Below, piece by piece: positions 49,414-54,476 of a DNA stretch of 64,000 nucleotides; within the stretch, counting starts at the first letter, position 1, and each line of letters opens with the position of its first letter. The notes under the pieces are model-generated. The model did no database searches. It saw only the letters and a program-made list of their open reading frames with translations, and was not told the origin of the DNA. The DNA comes from Escherichia phage ekra: the sequence record MN850644.1; one strand, given 5' to 3'. A program made the position numbers and the translations under genes.

Positions 49414-49635
49414 TATGTTTTCTCCAAATAATTAATCATGTTTCTCCTTAAAAAAGACGGCACAGAGACCGTCAAGGAGAAACCACAATGTACGTCAGAG
49501 ACATACTGTATAAGTCTTCCTATAAAGTATAACTCTGTAAAAAAGCCCTGTCTAAAAATACTCTTCGGTAGCGAAAGGAAGAATACTTATAGCAGGGCAT
49601 TATTATTATTTTAATTGAGAGAGAGTAAAATAACT

Positions 49636-49711
49636 TGGAGAATCCGAAGGGACTCGAACCCTTATAAACCTGTTTTGCAGACAGGTACATATCCATTTCT
49701 GTCACGGATTC
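49636..49711 (-). tRNA. tRNA-Cys (anticodon GCA)
   Basis: Hand-folded cloverleaf on minus strand; T-arm GACTCGAACCC-type; anticodon stem CCTGT/ACAGG, loop CTGCAAA; CCA encoded; ends +/-3 nt. Confidence 0.65.
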
Positions 49712-49715
49712 AAAT

Positions 49716-49808
49716 TGGAGGAAGATACCAGACTTGAACTGGTACACCGATTTCTCAGCTACTGGCAGTTTAGCAAACTGCTCCCTTACCTTTTAGGGTT
49801 AATCTTCC
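49716..49808 (-). tRNA. tRNA-Ser (anticodon GCT), long variable arm
   Basis: 93-nt element, acceptor GGAAGAT/ATCTTCC, anticodon loop TTGCTAA; hand-folded. Confidence 0.6.
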
Positions 49809-49809
49809 A

Positions 49810-50544
49810 TTATTTCTGTAATGCGCTCTTCATTTCTGGTGTTGCAATAGTGTCAATTACACCAGTTTTACAAGCATCGTCAAACCAGTCTGGTAAGATA
49901 CCTGCTAAGAACCCATTGATATTCGTTTTAAGGTACTCTGCAATAAGGGCAGCTTCTTCTTCAATCATCTGCACAACTTCATCTGCATAGGCGGTAATCT
50001 TTGAGATACCCTCATTAATCTTAATAACAGCTTGGTTAGCTAAATCAGAAACAGTATCAAGACCCTTATCAATAGCATCTTGTAAGTCACTTAACACATC
50101 GTTAACACTATCTAGTGTACTGTTAATCGTATCAATAGCTTTTTGACCATACTCTGTAGCAACACCCATAATACCACTGAATGGTGTACAACCGACTTGT
50201 TCTCCTGCTGCACCCATAACATTGGAGTATCCCTTTGCTACCTGCATACGTGATGAAAACTCATCAATAGACTTTTGACCATAGTCTGTTAGGGTCTTAG
50301 TAGTTGCTGTAGTGCTTGTCAGGCTTGTTGTAAAGCTGTTTAGAAGGACTGTTGTAAGTCCAGCAGCAACAAGCTTCTCCTCCATTGTAGGGTCTGTTAC
50401 AGAGCTAATAGAGCTTACAAGTGATGTAGAGGCAGCTACGGTTCCACCGAGAACTGCTGCACCAGTAATAAGTGGGTTAGAAAACCCTTTACCAGTTTTT
50501 AAGAGATTAAAAATCTCCTTACCTTGTTCTGTCATCTCTTTCAT
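49810..50544 (-). CDS. hypothetical protein embedded in tRNA array
   Basis: ORF 49810..50607 trimmed to ATG 50544 (MKEMTEQGKE, AAAGG RBS) so as not to overlap tRNA-Phe; Ser/Thr/Gly-rich N-terminal half, acidic helical C-terminal half. Confidence 0.4.
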   Translation of the reverse strand: MKEMTEQGKEIFNLLKTGKGFSNPLITGAAVLGGTVAASTSLVSSISSVTDPTMEEKLVAAGLTTVLLNSFTTSLTSTTATTKTLTDYGQKSIDEFSSRMQVAKGYSNVMGAAGEQVGCTPFSGIMGVATEYGQKAIDTINSTLDSVNDVLSDLQDAIDKGLDTVSDLANQAVIKINEGISKITAYADEVVQMIEEEAALIAEYLKTNINGFLAGILPDWFDDACKTGVIDTIATPEMKSALQK

Positions 50545-50560
50545 TAAGCACCTTTGAAAT

Positions 50561-50636
50561 TGGTAGTCCAGTGGGATTTGAACCCTCTTCTCATGTTTTT
50601 CAGACACGCGCTTTAACCATATAAGCTACTTGGACT
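50561..50636 (-). tRNA. tRNA-Phe (anticodon GAA)
   Basis: T-arm GGGATTTGAACCC; anticodon loop CTGAAAA; hand-folded. Confidence 0.6.
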
Positions 50637-50642
50637 ATAAAT

Positions 50643-50718
50643 TGGGGTGACCTACGGGATTTGAACCCGTATAGACCATGTTCACAGCATGGGTCATTAC
50701 CGTTTATGATAAGGCCAC
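50643..50718 (-). tRNA. tRNA-His (anticodon GTG)
   Basis: T-arm ACGGG-ATTTGAA-CCCGT; anticodon stem CATG/CATG, loop CTGTGAA; C73 discriminator. Confidence 0.6.
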
Positions 50719-50749
50719 ATTTAAGGACTCTCGTAAGAATCCTTAGAAG

Positions 50750-50825
50750 TGGCAGCGGCATAAGGATTTGAACCTTAATAGGACAGCTTCAGAGACTGCT
50801 GCATTGCCAGTTATGCTATACCGCT
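50750..50825 (-). tRNA. tRNA-Gln (anticodon CTG), tentative anticodon
   Basis: T-arm TAAGG-ATTTGAA-CCTTA clear; anticodon loop CTCTGAA with weak stem. Confidence 0.45.
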
Positions 50826-50830
50826 AAATT

Positions 50831-50909
50831 TGGTACTCCATATCGGATTCGAACCGATACATAACACAGATTTTAAGTCTGGCCTCTCTGCCAATTGGAG
50901 TAATGGAGC
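50831..50909 (-). tRNA. tRNA with Leu anticodon TAA; short variable region (unusual for Leu)
   Basis: T-arm ATCGG-ATTCGAA-CCGAT; loop CTTAAAA; D-loop AATTGGCAGAG (Leu-like); A73; only ~6 nt between anticodon and T stems. Confidence 0.45.
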
Positions 50910-50911
50910 AT

Positions 50912-50987
50912 TGGCGGGGGATGTTGGAATTGAACCAACTTCTTCGATTTCAAAGACCGAGGTTTTAACCTTGTAAACTAATCCCCT
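50912..50987 (-). tRNA. tRNA-Gln (anticodon TTG)
   Basis: T-arm GTTGG-AATTGAA-CCAAC; anticodon loop CTTTGAA; D-arm GTTT/AAAC. Confidence 0.5.
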
Positions 50988-50995
50988 TTAAATCT

Positions 50996-51553
50996 TTACT
51001 TTCTCAGTGGATGAATAAAGAATGCCAACATAACTCTTTCCCTTGAGAATGCTCTTTCTTCTGGGACAACACTTTTTAGTTTCCATCCAACATAAATTCT
51101 CCAGTAAAACTGTTTACCAAAGACTTTAATTGACGGAATAAAAGCGAATAATCCCCAAGCATTACTGTTCCACATTAGGAGATAACCTGTCTGATTATCT
51201 TCAGGGTCAGAACTTACGTTGATATTACCTTTCCACTTAGTAACATCTTTTACATCTCTTCCTAATACATGGTAAGAGAAGTTATAAGCTTTGTTTCTCC
51301 AGAGCCATCCGACTCTCTGCATGTAGACACCCAGCTTACCAATCTTTCTAATCTTAGCCCATCTTTTAACGTGACCTTCATCACCATCAATCGGATTGTC
51401 ATAGGTCTCCATCCATCTGAATCCAAAAGGTAGATGTCCTTTCTTCTCACTGTAGAATGGAACTACGAAAGGTGCTAAGATGACTGCTAGGGTTGCTGCA
51501 AATGGTTCTAGTAAAGCTAGGAAAATCCATGAAGCATACTTCAAATATCTCAT
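50996..51553 (-). CDS. hypothetical membrane protein embedded in tRNA array
   Basis: 185-aa ORF with AAGAGG RBS; N-terminal hydrophobic helix ASWIFLALLEPFAATLAVILAPFVVPF; Trp-rich. Confidence 0.45.
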   Translation of the reverse strand: MRYLKYASWIFLALLEPFAATLAVILAPFVVPFYSEKKGHLPFGFRWMETYDNPIDGDEGHVKRWAKIRKIGKLGVYMQRVGWLWRNKAYNFSYHVLGRDVKDVTKWKGNINVSSDPEDNQTGYLLMWNSNAWGLFAFIPSIKVFGKQFYWRIYVGWKLKSVVPEERAFSRERVMLAFFIHPLRK

Positions 51554-51572
51554 CTAAATAGCCTCTTAAAAT

Positions 51573-51650
51573 TGGTGTTCCAAGACGGATTCGAACCGTC
51601 ACTAATACAAGGTTTGAGCTTGCATCCTCTGCCAATTGGGATACTGGAAC
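51573..51650 (-). tRNA. tRNA with Leu anticodon CAA; short variable region
   Basis: T-arm GACGG-ATTCGAA-CCGTC; loop CTCAAAC; D-loop CCAATTGGCAGAGGA-type as in 50831..50909; A73. Confidence 0.45.
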
Positions 51651-51651
51651 A

Positions 51652-51726
51652 TGGTACTCACTAAAGGACTTGAACCTTTTTCTTCATCTTGTAAGGGTGA
51701 TGTTTTACCATATAAACTAAGCGAGT
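51652..51726 (-). tRNA. tRNA-Val (anticodon TAC)
   Basis: T-arm AAAGG-ACTTGAA-CCTTT; anticodon stem TCATC/GGTGA, loop CTTACAA. Confidence 0.6.
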
Positions 51727-51821
51727 GTGAAAGAGGTCTGAAGTTGTGCCGCTAACTCAACTCCGTGGAATTTGTTACGGTCTTCAGTTGACACCAGCGG
51801 TCTTTCACTTGACCTCTGAAT

Positions 51822-51898
51822 TGGTGCTGCTCACAGGACTCGAACCTGCATTTCCATCCTTACAAGGGATGTGTAATAGCCAATTATACGAAAGCAGC
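51822..51898 (-). tRNA. tRNA-Thr (anticodon TGT)
   Basis: Anticodon stem CATCC/GGATG perfect, loop CTTGTAA; T-arm ACTCGAA type. Confidence 0.6.
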
Positions 51899-51904
51899 AT
51901 TGTT

Positions 51905-51979
51905 TGGAGCATCCAGAGGGAATCGAACCCTCAACCTCAGTTTGGAAGACTGTAATTTTCCCGTTTAAACTATGGATGC
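51905..51979 (-). tRNA. tRNA-Gly (anticodon TCC)
   Basis: Acceptor GCATCCA/TGGATGC perfect; T-arm GAGGG-AATCGAA-CCCTC; loop CTTCCAA. Confidence 0.65.
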
Positions 51980-51985
51980 ACTAAT

Positions 51986-52062
51986 TGGTGGAGAAGCAGG
52001 GAATTGAACCCTGTACTTAAGTTTGCAAAACTTATGTTTTAACCATGTAAACTACATCCCCA
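51986..52062 (-). tRNA. tRNA-Ala (anticodon TGC)
   Basis: Anticodon stem TAAGT/ACTTA perfect, loop TTTGCAA; acceptor contains G3-U70 pair characteristic of tRNA-Ala. Confidence 0.6.
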
Positions 52063-52067
52063 ATGTT

Positions 52068-52143
52068 TGGTACAGGTGGAGGGAATTGAACCCATCGTCT
52101 TACTGATTAAGAGTCAGTCGCATAACCATTTTGCTACACCTGC
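52068..52143 (-). tRNA. tRNA-Lys (anticodon CTT)
   Basis: Anticodon stem ACTGA/TCAGT perfect, loop CTCTTAA; T-loop AATTGAA. Confidence 0.55.
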
Positions 52144-52150
52144 ATTAATT

Positions 52151-52228
52151 TGGTAGGAGACAAGGGATTCGAACCCTCAAACACCAACTTCTAAGGATGG
52201 TAGGTTTACCAATTACCGTCAATCTCCC
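52151..52228 (-). tRNA. tRNA with Leu anticodon TAG; short variable region
   Basis: T-arm AAGGG-ATTCGAA-CCCTC; loop CTTAGAA; D-loop AATTGGTAA (Leu-like); A73. Confidence 0.45.
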
Positions 52229-52483
52229 ATTAAATCTTTTTAGAGAACTTCTAAGAACCTAAGCAACAAGGTTCCACAACAAGCTGTAATAACCTTAGAA
52301 GCCCTCTAAAAAGACCTAAAAAGGTCTTTGCATAGTCTTGTTTAATCCGGTGACTAGAACCTTTGGAGAGCTTGATATTATCTCTTCTCCATGACACCTA
52401 CTAGGTGTTTTATCAGTGTGTACGACAATACACGAGGGATACCAAAGCAACATCCGAATGAAGCTTGGCTTTAAATCTTATTA

Positions 52484-52573
52484 GGCGGTAAGTAAAGGAG
52501 TCGAACCCTCACCGTATCTCTACAGTGGCAACTGTTTTCAAGACAGTTTGGCTACCATTAGCCGCTACCTACC
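52484..52573 (-). tRNA. tRNA-Ser (anticodon TGA), long variable arm
   Basis: Anticodon stem ACTGT/ACAGT perfect, loop CTTGAAA; ~21-nt variable arm; 3-bp D stem; 3' CCA not encoded. Confidence 0.55.
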
Positions 52574-52586
52574 CCTAATAAGACTT

Positions 52587-52669
52587 TGGCATGGGACGGA
52601 GGAGTTGAACCCCTTTGAAACGGTTTTGGAGGCCGTTGCTCATGCCTTAGAGTCTTAACATCGTCCCAC
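52587..52669 (-). tRNA. tRNA-Trp (anticodon CCA), boundaries uncertain
   Basis: Anticodon stem ACGGT/GCCGT, loop CTCCAAA; T-loop AGTTGAA; element ~7 nt longer than canonical, D region ambiguous. Confidence 0.4.
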
Positions 52670-52811
52670 ACTATAATTCGAAGCTTACCGTATTTTCGCA
52701 ACACTGTAAAGCCCCTTCTCAGATTATTTACATGTTCTGGAAAACATGAGATACAGACCACCTCCTTACACGGAGACCCGATAAGGTCGTCTAAGCAATC
52801 TGCTAACTATT

Positions 52812-52888
52812 TGGCACACCCTACAGGATTCGAACCTGTAACTAACGATTTAGAAGACCGTTGCTCTATCCAATTGAACTAAGGGTGC
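52812..52888 (-). tRNA. tRNA-Arg (anticodon TCT)
   Basis: T-arm ACAGG-ATTCGAA-CCTGT; loop CTTCTAA. Confidence 0.6.
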
Positions 52889-53135
52889 ATTAATCTTTAA
52901 AGACTCTCTTAGAAAGCCCTTAAAGATGCCCACCTTATTAATCATACCGTGGGCGAGTACGCCAAATTCTTTGATGAGGGATTGGAAGACCTCACTGGTG
53001 TTTAGCCTATCAAGCTACTGCCAGAAAAACATTGTCGTTTGCATTTATTTTAAATTTGCAAAATAGACGCTACGCAACGAAAACTAAGGTTACTATAAAG
53101 TGGTCACATGTTAATGTCAACAACTTTATTGAAAT

Positions 53136-53211
53136 TGGTACTGGTAGGTGGAATCGAACCACCGATGTTCCCTTATCAGGGGAGTGTTATAACCTTCTTA
53201 ACTATACCAGC
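53136..53211 (-). tRNA. tRNA-Ile (anticodon GAT)
   Basis: T-arm GGTGG-AATCGAA-CCACC perfect; anticodon loop CTGATAA. Confidence 0.6.
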
Positions 53212-53213
53212 TT

Positions 53214-53290
53214 GGAGGTTCAGATGGGAATCGAACCCACATTCATAGGGCTTATGAGACCCCTGCATTACCTTATCTGCGACTGAACCA
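53214..53290 (-). tRNA. tRNA-Met (anticodon CAT; initiator, elongator or Ile-lysidine type not resolved)
   Basis: Acceptor GGTTCAG/CTGAACC perfect; anticodon loop CTCATAA with three consecutive G-C pairs in anticodon stem. Confidence 0.55.
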
Positions 53291-53293
53291 TAT

Positions 53294-53369
53294 TGGTAGA
53301 AGTGGAGGGATTCGAACCCATCGCCTGTCAGATTAAAAGTCTGCCGCATCACCATTCTGCTACACTTCC
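53294..53369 (-). tRNA. tRNA-Lys (anticodon TTT)
   Basis: T-arm GGAGGGATTCGAACCC; anticodon loop CTTTTAA. Confidence 0.6.
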
Positions 53370-53827
53370 ATTAAATTATCTTTGTAGATAAGCTACCCAG
53401 ACTTGCTTAAGGTCTGTAGCGATGTGCTTTGTTGGGTTTAAATCTAGAATTTACCCTTTCACCCTTTGTGGTCGCATACTCACAGGTAAGCTTAATAACT
53501 TATCTACAAAGATAATTACCAGACCGTTGTTTATCATCTTAAGTGCTACCATTACACCAACTCGACATCTGCCGAGTGAAGGAATCGAACCTTCGCCTTT
53601 TCTTTACCGGAGAAATAGATTGTTTAAGTTTTGCTGTAAACGGTCTTCTGTAAATTTGTTGAGCCAGACCAAGTTTTAAATTTTTTCAAAATTAAATTGG
53701 CTTGAAAATATCATACGTACTTGCTGAATTTGGTCTTCTGCTCCTTTAAAGAATACTCGTAAGAACTCTTTAAGGGAGGGGCTAAATAGCCCTCTCAAAA
53801 CATCATCTTGAAATACTTATTATAATT

Positions 53828-53905
53828 TGGCGGTTACGAAGGGATTTGAACCCTCATCATCTCCCGTGACAGGGGAGTATTTTAACCAGATTAAACTACA
53901 TAACC
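53828..53905 (-). tRNA. tRNA-Asp (anticodon GTC)
   Basis: Anticodon stem CTCCC/GGGAG perfect, loop CTGTCAC; T-arm AAGGG-ATTTGAA-CCCTC. Confidence 0.65.
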
Positions 53906-53911
53906 TTTATT

Positions 53912-53999
53912 TGGTGTGCCGTGTAGGAGTCGAACCTACCGAGTCTCAATGACAAGGGATTTACAGTCCCCACCGCTACCATCTACGGGATAACGACAC
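53912..53999 (-). tRNA. tRNA-Tyr (anticodon GTA), long variable arm
   Basis: 88-nt element; T-arm GTAGG-AGTCGAA-CCTAC; loop CTGTAAA; ~15-nt variable arm. Confidence 0.55.
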
Positions 54000-54070
54000 A
54001 TTTTATTATTCTATTCAGGCTAAGGACTTGCACCTTACAAATCGGTGAGCAATCGCTTCTCTCCTAAATT

Positions 54071-54147
54071 TGGCGGTTAGTCAGGGATTCGAACCCTGTG
54101 CCATTCGCTTAACAGGCGACCGCACATACCTTATGTGCTTCCTAACC
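54071..54147 (-). tRNA. tRNA-Asn (anticodon GTT)
   Basis: T-arm CAGGG-ATTCGAA-CCCTG; anticodon loop CTGTTAA; D stem GCAC/GTGC. Confidence 0.6.
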
Positions 54148-54225
54148 TTAATACATTGCCAGACCGTGTTTTTTTCTTTTATCCGCAAAAAGTAGTTTGT
54201 TGCTGCATACGGTCTTCTGCAAAAT

Positions 54226-54302
54226 TGGAGGCGGGTGCAGGAGTCGAACCTACCGATACCATGCTAATGAGACATGTGAGACGCCCTTTCTCTATACCCG
54301 CA
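54226..54302 (-). tRNA. tRNA-Met, second CAT-anticodon gene
   Basis: T-loop AGTCGAA; anticodon stem CATG/CATG, loop CTCATTA. Confidence 0.5.
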
Positions 54303-54391
54303 ATTCTTAATGACCAGACCAAATATCTTCTTTGTCCGATTTATCTTCAGATGAATAAGATTAAGTTTGCTGCAATTGGTCTTCTGTCAAA

Positions 54392-54469
54392 ACTGGCGTT
54401 CCAGAAGGGATTTGAACCCTCAAATATCCACTTTGAAAGAGTGGTGACTTTACCGTTTTGTCTACTGGA
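54392..54469 (-). tRNA. tRNA-Glu (anticodon TTC)
   Basis: Acceptor GTTCCAG/CTGGAAC perfect; anticodon stem CCACT/AGTGG perfect, loop CTTTCAA. Confidence 0.65.
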
Positions 54470-54476
54470 ACATTAA

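Follow-up and report, generated by a model that had tools for sequence, protein, structure and literature searches.

Three genes in the tRNA array of Escherichia phage ekra (record MN850644.1) carry leucine anticodons but lack the long variable arm that is usual for a bacterial tRNALeu. They lie in a stretch of 64,000 nucleotides (nt), referred to here as the window, which belongs to a Felixounavirus, i.e., a Felix O1-like myovirus whose hosts are E. coli, Salmonella and Shigella. Our preferred reading, to which we assign a probability of about 80%, is that the three elements are working type I tRNALeu molecules, charged by the host's leucyl-tRNA synthetase (LeuRS) and decoding UUA, UUG and CUA for an AT-rich genome. 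The simplest reading of the missing arm is tolerance of its loss.

Structure and conservation of the leucine genes

The original prediction had placed three Leu-type tRNAs, with the anticodons TAA, CAA and TAG, in the window. ARAGORN calls genes at exactly these coordinates (Table 1), Rfam matches all three, and the two programs agree on the anticodons. Each gene exceeds the gathering score of the Rfam model RF00005 (29 bits), and each anticodon sits in a 7-nt loop with U33. The A73 discriminator and the AATTGG motif of the D loop, which the prediction had also named, are seen in all three genes, together with an encoded CCA end.

The variable regions were counted by standard numbering, with a 5-bp anticodon stem. 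They comprise GUUAUGU (7 nt) in tRNA-Leu(UAA), AUUAGU (6 nt, or 5 nt if a U26:A44 pair is counted) in tRNA-Leu(CAA), and UGUUU (5 nt) in tRNA-Leu(UAG), in agreement with the initial estimate of about 5-7 nt between the anticodon and T stems. In the ARAGORN drawings, which include an additional 26:44 pair, the loops have 7, 5 and 4 nt, and the Rfam alignment of tRNA-Leu(UAG) is shifted by one nucleotide. Without the CCA the genes measure 75-76 nt, too few to accommodate an arm of 13-15 nt. The tRNA-Ser and tRNA-Tyr genes of the same array do keep long arms, of 21, 18 and 15 nt, as had also been claimed. Automated folding, set beforehand as a possible refutation of the prediction, gave neither a long arm nor another anticodon. 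A hidden long arm or a different anticodon was thus ruled out by ARAGORN, Rfam and manual numbering.

In tRNA-Leu(UAA), the acceptor stem begins with G1.U72, the anticodon loop contains A36A37A38, the anticodon stem contains one mismatch (C27.U43), and the D arm is CUC-CAAUUGGCAGA-GAG. The tRNA-Leu(CAA) gene has G1-C72 and the D arm UCC-CAAUUGGCAGA-GGA; it is 71% identical to tRNA-Leu(UAA) and looks like its paralogue. The tRNA-Leu(UAG) gene has G1.U72 and A37.

The tRNA-Leu(UAA) gene is at least 99% identical in 215 records of Escherichia, Salmonella, Shigella and Citrobacter phages, and both it and tRNA-Leu(CAA) are identical in Felix O1. Among the Felix O1-like phages, tRNA-Leu(UAG) is more variable than these two. 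Its anticodon stem reads CCAUC/GUUGG in the window vs UCUCG/CGAGA in Felix O1 and VpaE1; three pairs differ on both sides, one is the same, and U30.U40 is replaced by C-G, while the rest of the gene is almost unchanged. To judge from these sequences, the Leu genes are kept by selection. They also differ from pseudogenes, in that they are conserved, vary between alleles in a compensatory manner, and retain the CCA and the identity elements; the true tRNA remnants of the array score below the Rfam threshold.

The acceptor, D and T arms of the window's tRNA-Leu(UAG) are those of Felix O1, and its anticodon stem, including U30.U40, is that of T5 and a Seunavirus (window 52151-52228, minus strand, compared with L359:3501-3578, L364 and L358:8997-9073). 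This pattern suggests that the gene is a mosaic, produced by recombination between tRNA genes of unrelated coliphages. A recent origin of the Leu genes from the host was rejected; blastn found no copy of the phage tRNA-Leu(UAA) in 5,426 E. coli genomes, and the identity to the host isoacceptors is 45-59%. A separate observation concerns GenBank entry GU169904.1 ("Staphylococcus phage SA1", 147 kb), whose tRNA-Leu genes match the window's Felix O1-type genes with 100% identity; this entry is most likely a mixed or mislabelled assembly.

Leucine identity, charging and codon use

All three genes contain U8, A14, A15, U48, G18G19, A20a and A73. For the phage UAA and CAA genes, as for E. coli leuZ, leuW and leuX, ARAGORN draws an unusual D arm with a stem of 3 bp and a loop of 11 nt. 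In phage and host alike this loop reads N13-A14-A15-U16-U17-G18-G19-Y20-A20a-R21-A22, and the variable region ends in a U that would allow an A15:U48 pair. Alignment with host and phage tRNA-Leu, one of the checks proposed with the prediction, thus yields a leuZ/leuX/leuW-like D arm for the UAA and CAA genes, and short Leu genes in related phages. In tRNA-Leu(UAG) the core bases are in place, although a one-nucleotide slip of the D stem makes the geometry uncertain. Of the features that define a bacterial tRNALeu as a substrate of an E. coli-type LeuRS, the anticodon (NAA or NAG), A73 and the bases of the core elements (U8:A14, A15:U48, A20a, and G18G19 four nucleotides beyond position 13) are found, and the long variable arm (an arm exceeding 10 nt whose 3′ foot carries an unpaired base) is not. 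The features that define a type I tRNALeu according to Fan et al. are all found, namely a Leu anticodon, an unstructured loop of at least 5 nt including nucleotide 48, A73 and A14.

Published work describes what LeuRS needs in its tRNA. In E. coli tRNALeu, A73 is crucial, and the anticodon and the long arm are dispensable (PMC9976931). In selection experiments with this tRNA, A15-U48, G18G19 and A20a were essential, and the sequence and folding of the arm were uncorrelated with activity (PMC9976931; PMC6614811). With the LeuRS of Aquifex, removal of the arm mainly lowers affinity, and deletion of U48 abolishes charging (PMC2377443). Good charging of the Streptomyces tRNALeu in vitro, type I as well as type II, takes at least five loop nucleotides, nucleotide 48 among them (PMC6614811). 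The variable loop matters for binding by seryl-tRNA synthetase (SerRS), according to a study of the toxin MenT3 (PMC11541572), and tyrosyl-tRNA synthetase (TyrRS) checks the long arm (PMC3561953).

The leucine codons in the 65 long open reading frames (ORFs) of the window, whose G+C content is 39%, are TTA (26.5%), CTT (27.6%), CTG (14.4%), TTG (13.4%), CTA (11.7%) and CTC (6.5%). In E. coli, CTG accounts for about half of the leucine codons and CTA for about 4%, and UUA, UUG and CUA are read by minor isoacceptors. UUA and CUA are used two to three times more in the phage than in the host. The phage anticodons UAA, CAA and UAG are counterparts of these minor host species. Leu(TTA) is also among the codons that the Felix O1 genome paper considers likely to benefit from a phage tRNA.

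A mechanism can be proposed on this basis. The layout of the genes suggests that the Leu genes would be transcribed with the rest of the 25-gene array and processed to tRNAs ending in the encoded CCA. The window contains no LeuRS gene, and the genomes of Felix O1-like phages measure about 87 kb; charging would therefore fall to the host enzyme. It would act through A73 and the shape of the core (U8:A14, A15:U48, G18G19 and A20a), the elements of which are present. The UAA species would then read UUA and UUG, the CAA species UUG, and the UAG species CUA and probably other CUN codons. Loss of the arm would be possible because, of the three long-arm families, tRNALeu is the only one for which the bacterial synthetase dispenses with the arm. 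This difference would also explain why phage tRNA-Leu is often short, tRNA-Ser almost never, and tRNA-Tyr rarely. The phage genes may thus be regarded as a natural experiment on the rules of the synthetases, in which the arm has been lost often for Leu, almost never for Ser and rarely for Tyr, and in which the Leu loop does not fall below 5 nt.

The short form in other genomes and the alternative readings

The short Leu form is not a peculiarity of Felix O1; it is common in phage tRNA clusters, including that of T5. In the T5 locus, both Leu genes (UAA and UAG) are short, at 77 nt with 5-nt loops, and the Ser and Tyr genes are long-armed. The tRNAs of T5 were reportedly identified by amino-acid acceptance by Chen (1976) and Hunt (1980). 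The window's tRNA-Leu(UAG) shares 81-84% identity with its counterparts in T5 and BF23. PMC4810235 includes a tRNALeu in its table of T5 tRNAs and cites Chen 1976 and Hunt 1980 among others. Two short Leu genes, and no long ones, were found in the Cronobacter phage EspYZU15 (Seunavirus), and a Leu gene of 74 nt in the Aeromonas phage Akh-2.

A search with the pattern of a short-armed Leu tRNA returned at least 120 loci in IMG/VR and at least 120 loci in the GTDB genome collection. Among the GTDB matches listed (L121-L240), most are single-copy chromosomal tRNA-Leu(UAA) genes of Actinobacteria, including Nocardia, Mycobacterium, Gordonia, Rhodococcus, Arthrobacter, Bifidobacterium and others. 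Other short Leu genes among these matches belong to arrays of 17-28 tRNAs in Acidobacteriota, cyanobacteria and Planctomycetota.

The prevalence of the short form was estimated from viral loci that were retrieved through the anticodon loops of tRNA-Arg(UCU), tRNA-Thr(UGU) and tRNA-Gly(UCC), each combined with a common T loop. Short genes made up 7/45, 26/62 and 41/85 of the Leu genes found with these three anchors, respectively, and 70/186 overall (38%; 95% interval, 31-45%); this is a rough figure that depends on the anchor (16%, 42% and 48%), and duplicates were dropped only if identical, with no correction for related contigs. An initial estimate from the Arg anchor alone had been 4/41; 42% and 48% were then obtained with Thr and Gly. 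Short genes were far rarer among the Ser (1/121) and Tyr (5/61) genes of these loci (Fisher p = 8e-18 for the comparison with Leu). As an aside, the latter count implies that a few phage tRNA-Tyr genes also go without the long arm. The original prediction had called the three genes atypical Leu isoacceptors. The retained identity elements, the conservation and the compensatory allele changes support their being Leu isoacceptors, and the word atypical holds with respect to bacteria; it does not hold for phages, where roughly a third of the sampled Leu genes are short-armed.

An alignment of 123 non-redundant short phage tRNA-Leu sequences has few gaps, and its consensus fold is a simple cloverleaf in which the D stem has 3 bp and a variable stem is lacking. 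Paired cells amount to 97.1%, vs 58.8% in shuffles and 36-47% with the partners slid, a high value that is partly circular because a tRNA finder had selected the set. Such selection does not build in the diversity of pair types, and 20/20 pairs covary, with changes on both sides. In a pattern-selected set of 160 short genes, 47 of which do not match the search pattern, A73 is found in 153/160 and U48 in 158/160. The variable loop in this set measures 5 nt in 135 genes, 6 nt in 16, 7 nt in 8 and 4 nt in one. Loops of 3-4 nt thus occur in 1/160 short Leu genes vs 424/949 other class I tRNAs of the same loci (Fisher p = 1e-35). In the unbiased set obtained with the three anchors, loops below 5 nt occur in 0/70 short Leu genes vs 564/1691 other class I tRNAs. 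This floor of 5 nt fits the minimum loop found in biochemical work (PMC6614811).

The short and long forms appear to be closely related. G1.U72 is found in 44% of the short and 39% of the long phage Leu genes, vs 12% of the other phage tRNAs (viral loci L001-L120 and L241-L599), and its frequency in both forms therefore argues that they belong to one family. Some short and long genes share 87-88% of the core and differ mainly in the arm (88% for L020, short, and L058, long), which points to repeated interconversion of the forms. The nearest neighbour of a short gene is itself short in 132/149 cases. The picture regarding a single or a multiple origin of the short form is, on these comparisons, mixed.

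Tolerance is not the only way in which loss of the arm might be understood. It might instead be adaptive, if the short tRNAs are charged with leucine but escape either toxins of the host or of competitors that recognise the class II arm, or the phage's own attack on host tRNA. Leucine decoding would then survive the disabling of the type II tRNALeu of the host. Such recognition is documented for MenT3, which anchors on the long variable loop, such that deletion of the loop abolishes the preferred modification and grafting it onto tRNAMet confers it (PMC11541572). The abortive-infection toxin AbiEii also appears to prefer class II tRNAs, according to the literature, and rescue of infection by phage tRNAs from tRNA-cleaving defences is established for other isoacceptors. 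Moreover, every Leu gene is short in the Felix O1-like phages, T5 and the Seunavirus, and short Leu genes tend to occur in larger arrays, with a median of 17 tRNAs per locus vs 9 for long ones. Against this, no enterobacterial toxin was found that targets tRNALeu by its arm, and papers on OLD, PARIS and anticodon-nuclease evasion yielded no Leu-specific target. Among the loci with at least two Leu genes, 20/48 mix short and long forms, which fits tolerance better than a strict requirement for the short form. The chromosomal type I tRNALeu common in Actinobacteria implies that the arm is also lost without a phage-defence setting. The Ser tRNAs of the same arrays keep the arm although MenT3-type toxins prefer Ser; this, however, is expected either way, as SerRS needs the arm. 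We consider an adaptive loss unlikely. If it did occur, only tRNALeu among the class II tRNAs could escape in this way, since LeuRS ignores the arm.

Several observations weigh against our preferred reading of the three elements as working, host-charged tRNALeu, in addition to the limits on the prevalence and pairing figures given above. The D arm of tRNA-Leu(UAG) is irregular, with an extra U before the D stem, a slipped GGU/ACC stem and C10.U25 unpaired, and its anticodon stem contains the U30.U40 mismatch. Folding of the single sequences gives z = -1.7, -2.2 and -0.8 for the UAA, CAA and UAG genes, and the minimum-free-energy fold is cloverleaf-like for CAA only, not for UAA or UAG. A homologue of tRNA-Leu(UAG) is annotated "tRNA-Pseudo-TAG" in one record. 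Finally, E. coli LeuRS failed to leucylate the S. coelicolor type I tRNALeu(CAA) at all, and is described as charging type II only (PMC6614811). There is thus a tension between an E. coli LeuRS that is reportedly restricted to type II and phages that depend on this enzyme and carry only type I. The S. coelicolor tRNA has C48 (PMC6614811) and hence no A15:U48 pair, whereas all three phage genes keep the bases for it. This difference suggests that C48 may be what explains the failure of the E. coli enzyme.

Part of this evidence could also be expected if the Leu genes were decaying or poorly functional relics, from which the arm has been deleted, which are badly charged or not charged, and which are retained as part of a conserved array. 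The weak thermodynamic folds, the mismatches (C27.U43 in UAA; U30.U40 and C10.U25 in UAG) and the reported inactivity of E. coli LeuRS on another type I tRNALeu would all fit, as would the Rfam scores of the Leu genes, which are the third-, fifth- and sixth-lowest of the 23 array tRNAs that reach the gathering score. Homologues are labelled "pseudo" or "tRNA-OTHER" in some records, and real tRNA remnants do exist in the array. It is, nevertheless, hard to reconcile decay with a UAA gene that is nearly invariant across 215 genomes, with compensatory stem differences in UAG, or with the retention of the identity elements and encoded CCA in a phage that has no other Leu tRNA. That the same architecture recurs in very divergent sequences, with covariation at every pair and a strict 5-nt limit, is likewise unlike decay. 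We therefore regard the relic reading as very improbable. The labels "pseudo" and "other" that annotation pipelines sometimes give to short Leu genes could be corrected.

Least credible of all is that the genes combine a Leu anticodon with another amino acid, or with a non-translational role as decoy, primer or regulator, as the original prediction had allowed; the resemblance of arm-less Leu genes to class I tRNAs, the A35 and A36 that UAA and CAA share with tRNAPhe, and the unusual G1.U72 might be cited for it, but G1.U72 is common to long-arm phage Leu genes, neither G3:U70 nor G34 is present, the three anticodons match Leu codons favoured by the phage, and the Leu-type D-arm motif (U8, A14A15, Y16Y17, G18G19, A20a and A22) occurs in 0-10% of every other isotype, vs 33% of long phage Leu genes and 71% of short ones, the last value being inflated since most of the short set was fetched by the AATTGG pattern. 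Nothing, in sum, points to a different identity.

The tRNA array and known counterparts

The region 49500-54700 is 95-97% identical, over its full length, to many Felixounavirus genomes (e.g., Shigella phage Z31 and Escherichia phages finno and JH2), and 237 records cover at least 80% of it; for the array itself, the identity to these genomes is 97%. The array (Table 1) is flanked by a terminase gene on one side and by a gene for a DUF2828/DUF7788 protein on the other. The Rfam tRNA model scores above the gathering score in 23/25 of its genes.

Table 1. Features of the tRNA array of phage ekra and of its surroundings (positions in the window)
Feature	Position	Strand	Description
tRNA-Leu(UAA), type I	50831..50909	-	79 nt with CCA (76 + encoded CCA); Rfam RF00005, 47.5 bits
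tRNA-Leu(CAA), type I	51573..51650	-	78 nt with CCA (75 + CCA); Rfam, 44.0 bits
tRNA-Leu(UAG), type I	52151..52228	-	78 nt with CCA (75 + CCA); Rfam, 40.0 bits
tRNA array	49636..54555	-	25 genes (ARAGORN), all minus-strand; broken up by two ORFs (DUF7217, DUF7338)
tRNA-Ser(GCU)	49716..49808	-	93 nt; variable arm 21 nt; internal long-arm control (ARAGORN)
tRNA-Ser(UGA)	52484..52573	-	90 nt; variable arm 18 nt; internal control
tRNA-Tyr(GUA)	53912..53999	-	88 nt; variable arm 15 nt; internal control
Second tRNA-Met	54226-54302	-	ARAGORN call
DUF7217 gene	49810-50607	-	265 aa (Pfam); inside array
DUF7338 gene	50996-51553	-	185 aa; hydrophobic N-terminus (Pfam); inside array
DUF2828/DUF7788 gene	54721-56136	-	471-aa ORF; immediately upstream of array
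Sigma-70-like promoter match	54582..54611	-	TTGACA, 18-nt spacer, TAAAGT, with TG; just upstream of the array's first tRNA
Hairpin 5′ of tRNA-Leu(UAG)	52229-52330	-	102 nt; -37.6 kcal/mol; z = -5.3
Hairpin between tRNA-Thr and tRNA-Val	51727-51821	-	95-nt spacer; -30.7 kcal/mol; z = -3.0
tRNA-like match in array gap	52593-52667	-	23 bits; sub-threshold
tRNA-like match in array gap	53577-53627	-	22 bits; sub-threshold

The tRNA-Tyr(GUA) gene has only a weak Rfam match, of 29.6 bits, and this to the tRNA-Sec model. For the second tRNA-Met among the ARAGORN calls, the Rfam tRNA model gives no match even when E values up to 1 are allowed. In the Felix O1 genome paper, tRNA-Tyr is listed as "pseudo", and the second tRNA-Met has a low score of 28.9. 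The two sub-threshold tRNA-like matches, both in array gaps, probably represent what is left of tRNA genes that have been lost; a tRNA pseudogene is annotated in this part of some related genomes.

Transcription of the array by host RNA polymerase possibly starts at the sigma-70-like promoter match, which is weak evidence as promoter matches in the region are as numerous as in shuffled sequence. HNH endonuclease genes lie between the tRNAs of Felix O1, at positions other than those of the window's DUF7338 and DUF7217 genes. The Felix O1 homologue of the 471-aa ORF, which contains Pfam domains DUF2828 and DUF7788, is annotated "RNA-binding protein", and this conserved putative RNA-binding protein may be functionally linked to the adjoining tRNA array. 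Two spacers fold into long hairpins. The one directly 5′ of tRNA-Leu(UAG) is near-perfect, with 0/200 shuffles folding equally well and only a spurious miRNA-like match in Rfam; a role as processing signal, terminator or small RNA is conceivable. The other, between tRNA-Thr and tRNA-Val, has no match to an Rfam family.

GenBank records and the papers on Felix O1 and Sf14 annotate the three Leu genes as tRNA-Leu, and neither paper comments on the arm. Our literature search found no paper that mentions phage Leu tRNAs without the arm, although the T5 tRNA literature of the 1970s-1980s may have noted it. A review from 2023 describes tRNALeu as long-armed everywhere except in animal mitochondria (PMC9976931). 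The only bacterial exception to the long-arm rule that we found in the literature is one Streptomyces gene, and beyond this case we found no paper describing the actinobacterial type I tRNALeu. As a kind, type I tRNALeu is thus already known, from Streptomyces and from mitochondria, and the genes in the window are new examples. Short Leu tRNAs would be compact scaffolds that LeuRS recognises independently of the anticodon, and could suit the design of suppressors.

A known counterpart is the S. coelicolor type I tRNALeu(CAA) (Fan et al. 2019, PMC6614811). Like the phage genes, it is of bacterial type, with a 5-nt loop and with A73 and A14 as identity elements. Unlike them, it is chromosomal, stands beside four type II isoacceptors, and has C48 in place of the phage U48. 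The leucine-specific domain of its own LeuRS matters for its charging, and the E. coli enzyme is inactive on it, whereas the phage genes have to function in E. coli and Salmonella and are the only Leu tRNAs of the phage.

Animal mitochondrial tRNALeu(UUR/CUN) also combines a short variable loop with A73 and A14 identity (PMC9976931), but differs in its degenerate core, its dedicated mitochondrial LeuRS, and its unrelated sequence and setting. The E. coli leuZ (UAA), leuX (CAA) and leuW (UAG) genes share with the phage genes the anticodons, A73, U48, and an 11-nt D loop containing AAUYGG on a 3-bp stem. They differ in their length (87 nt for leuZ, 85 for leuW and 85 for leuX), with variable arms of 12-15 nt, and are only 45-59% identical to the phage Leu genes; in addition, leuW has G37 where the phage tRNA-Leu(UAG) has A37. 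The actinobacterial type I tRNALeu(UAA) genes are single chromosomal genes in G+C-rich genomes, with no phage array. They resemble the phage genes in the 5-nt loop, A73 and U48, and their CAAUUGGCAGAG D arm is nearly identical to that of the window's UAA and CAA genes.

Counterparts also exist in the Tequintaviruses T5 and BF23. No CAA gene was seen in the T5 stretch examined, and the T5 tRNA-Leu(UAG) has a regular D arm (A10-U25, U11-A24 and G12-C23), unlike the Felix O1-type gene with its extra U and slipped stem. The Leu(UAG) and Leu(UAA) genes of these phages are, however, 77 nt long with a 5-nt loop, A73 and U48, and these phages have the same hosts; the T5 tRNA-Leu(UAG) further shares both the U30.U40 mismatch and the T arm with that of the window.

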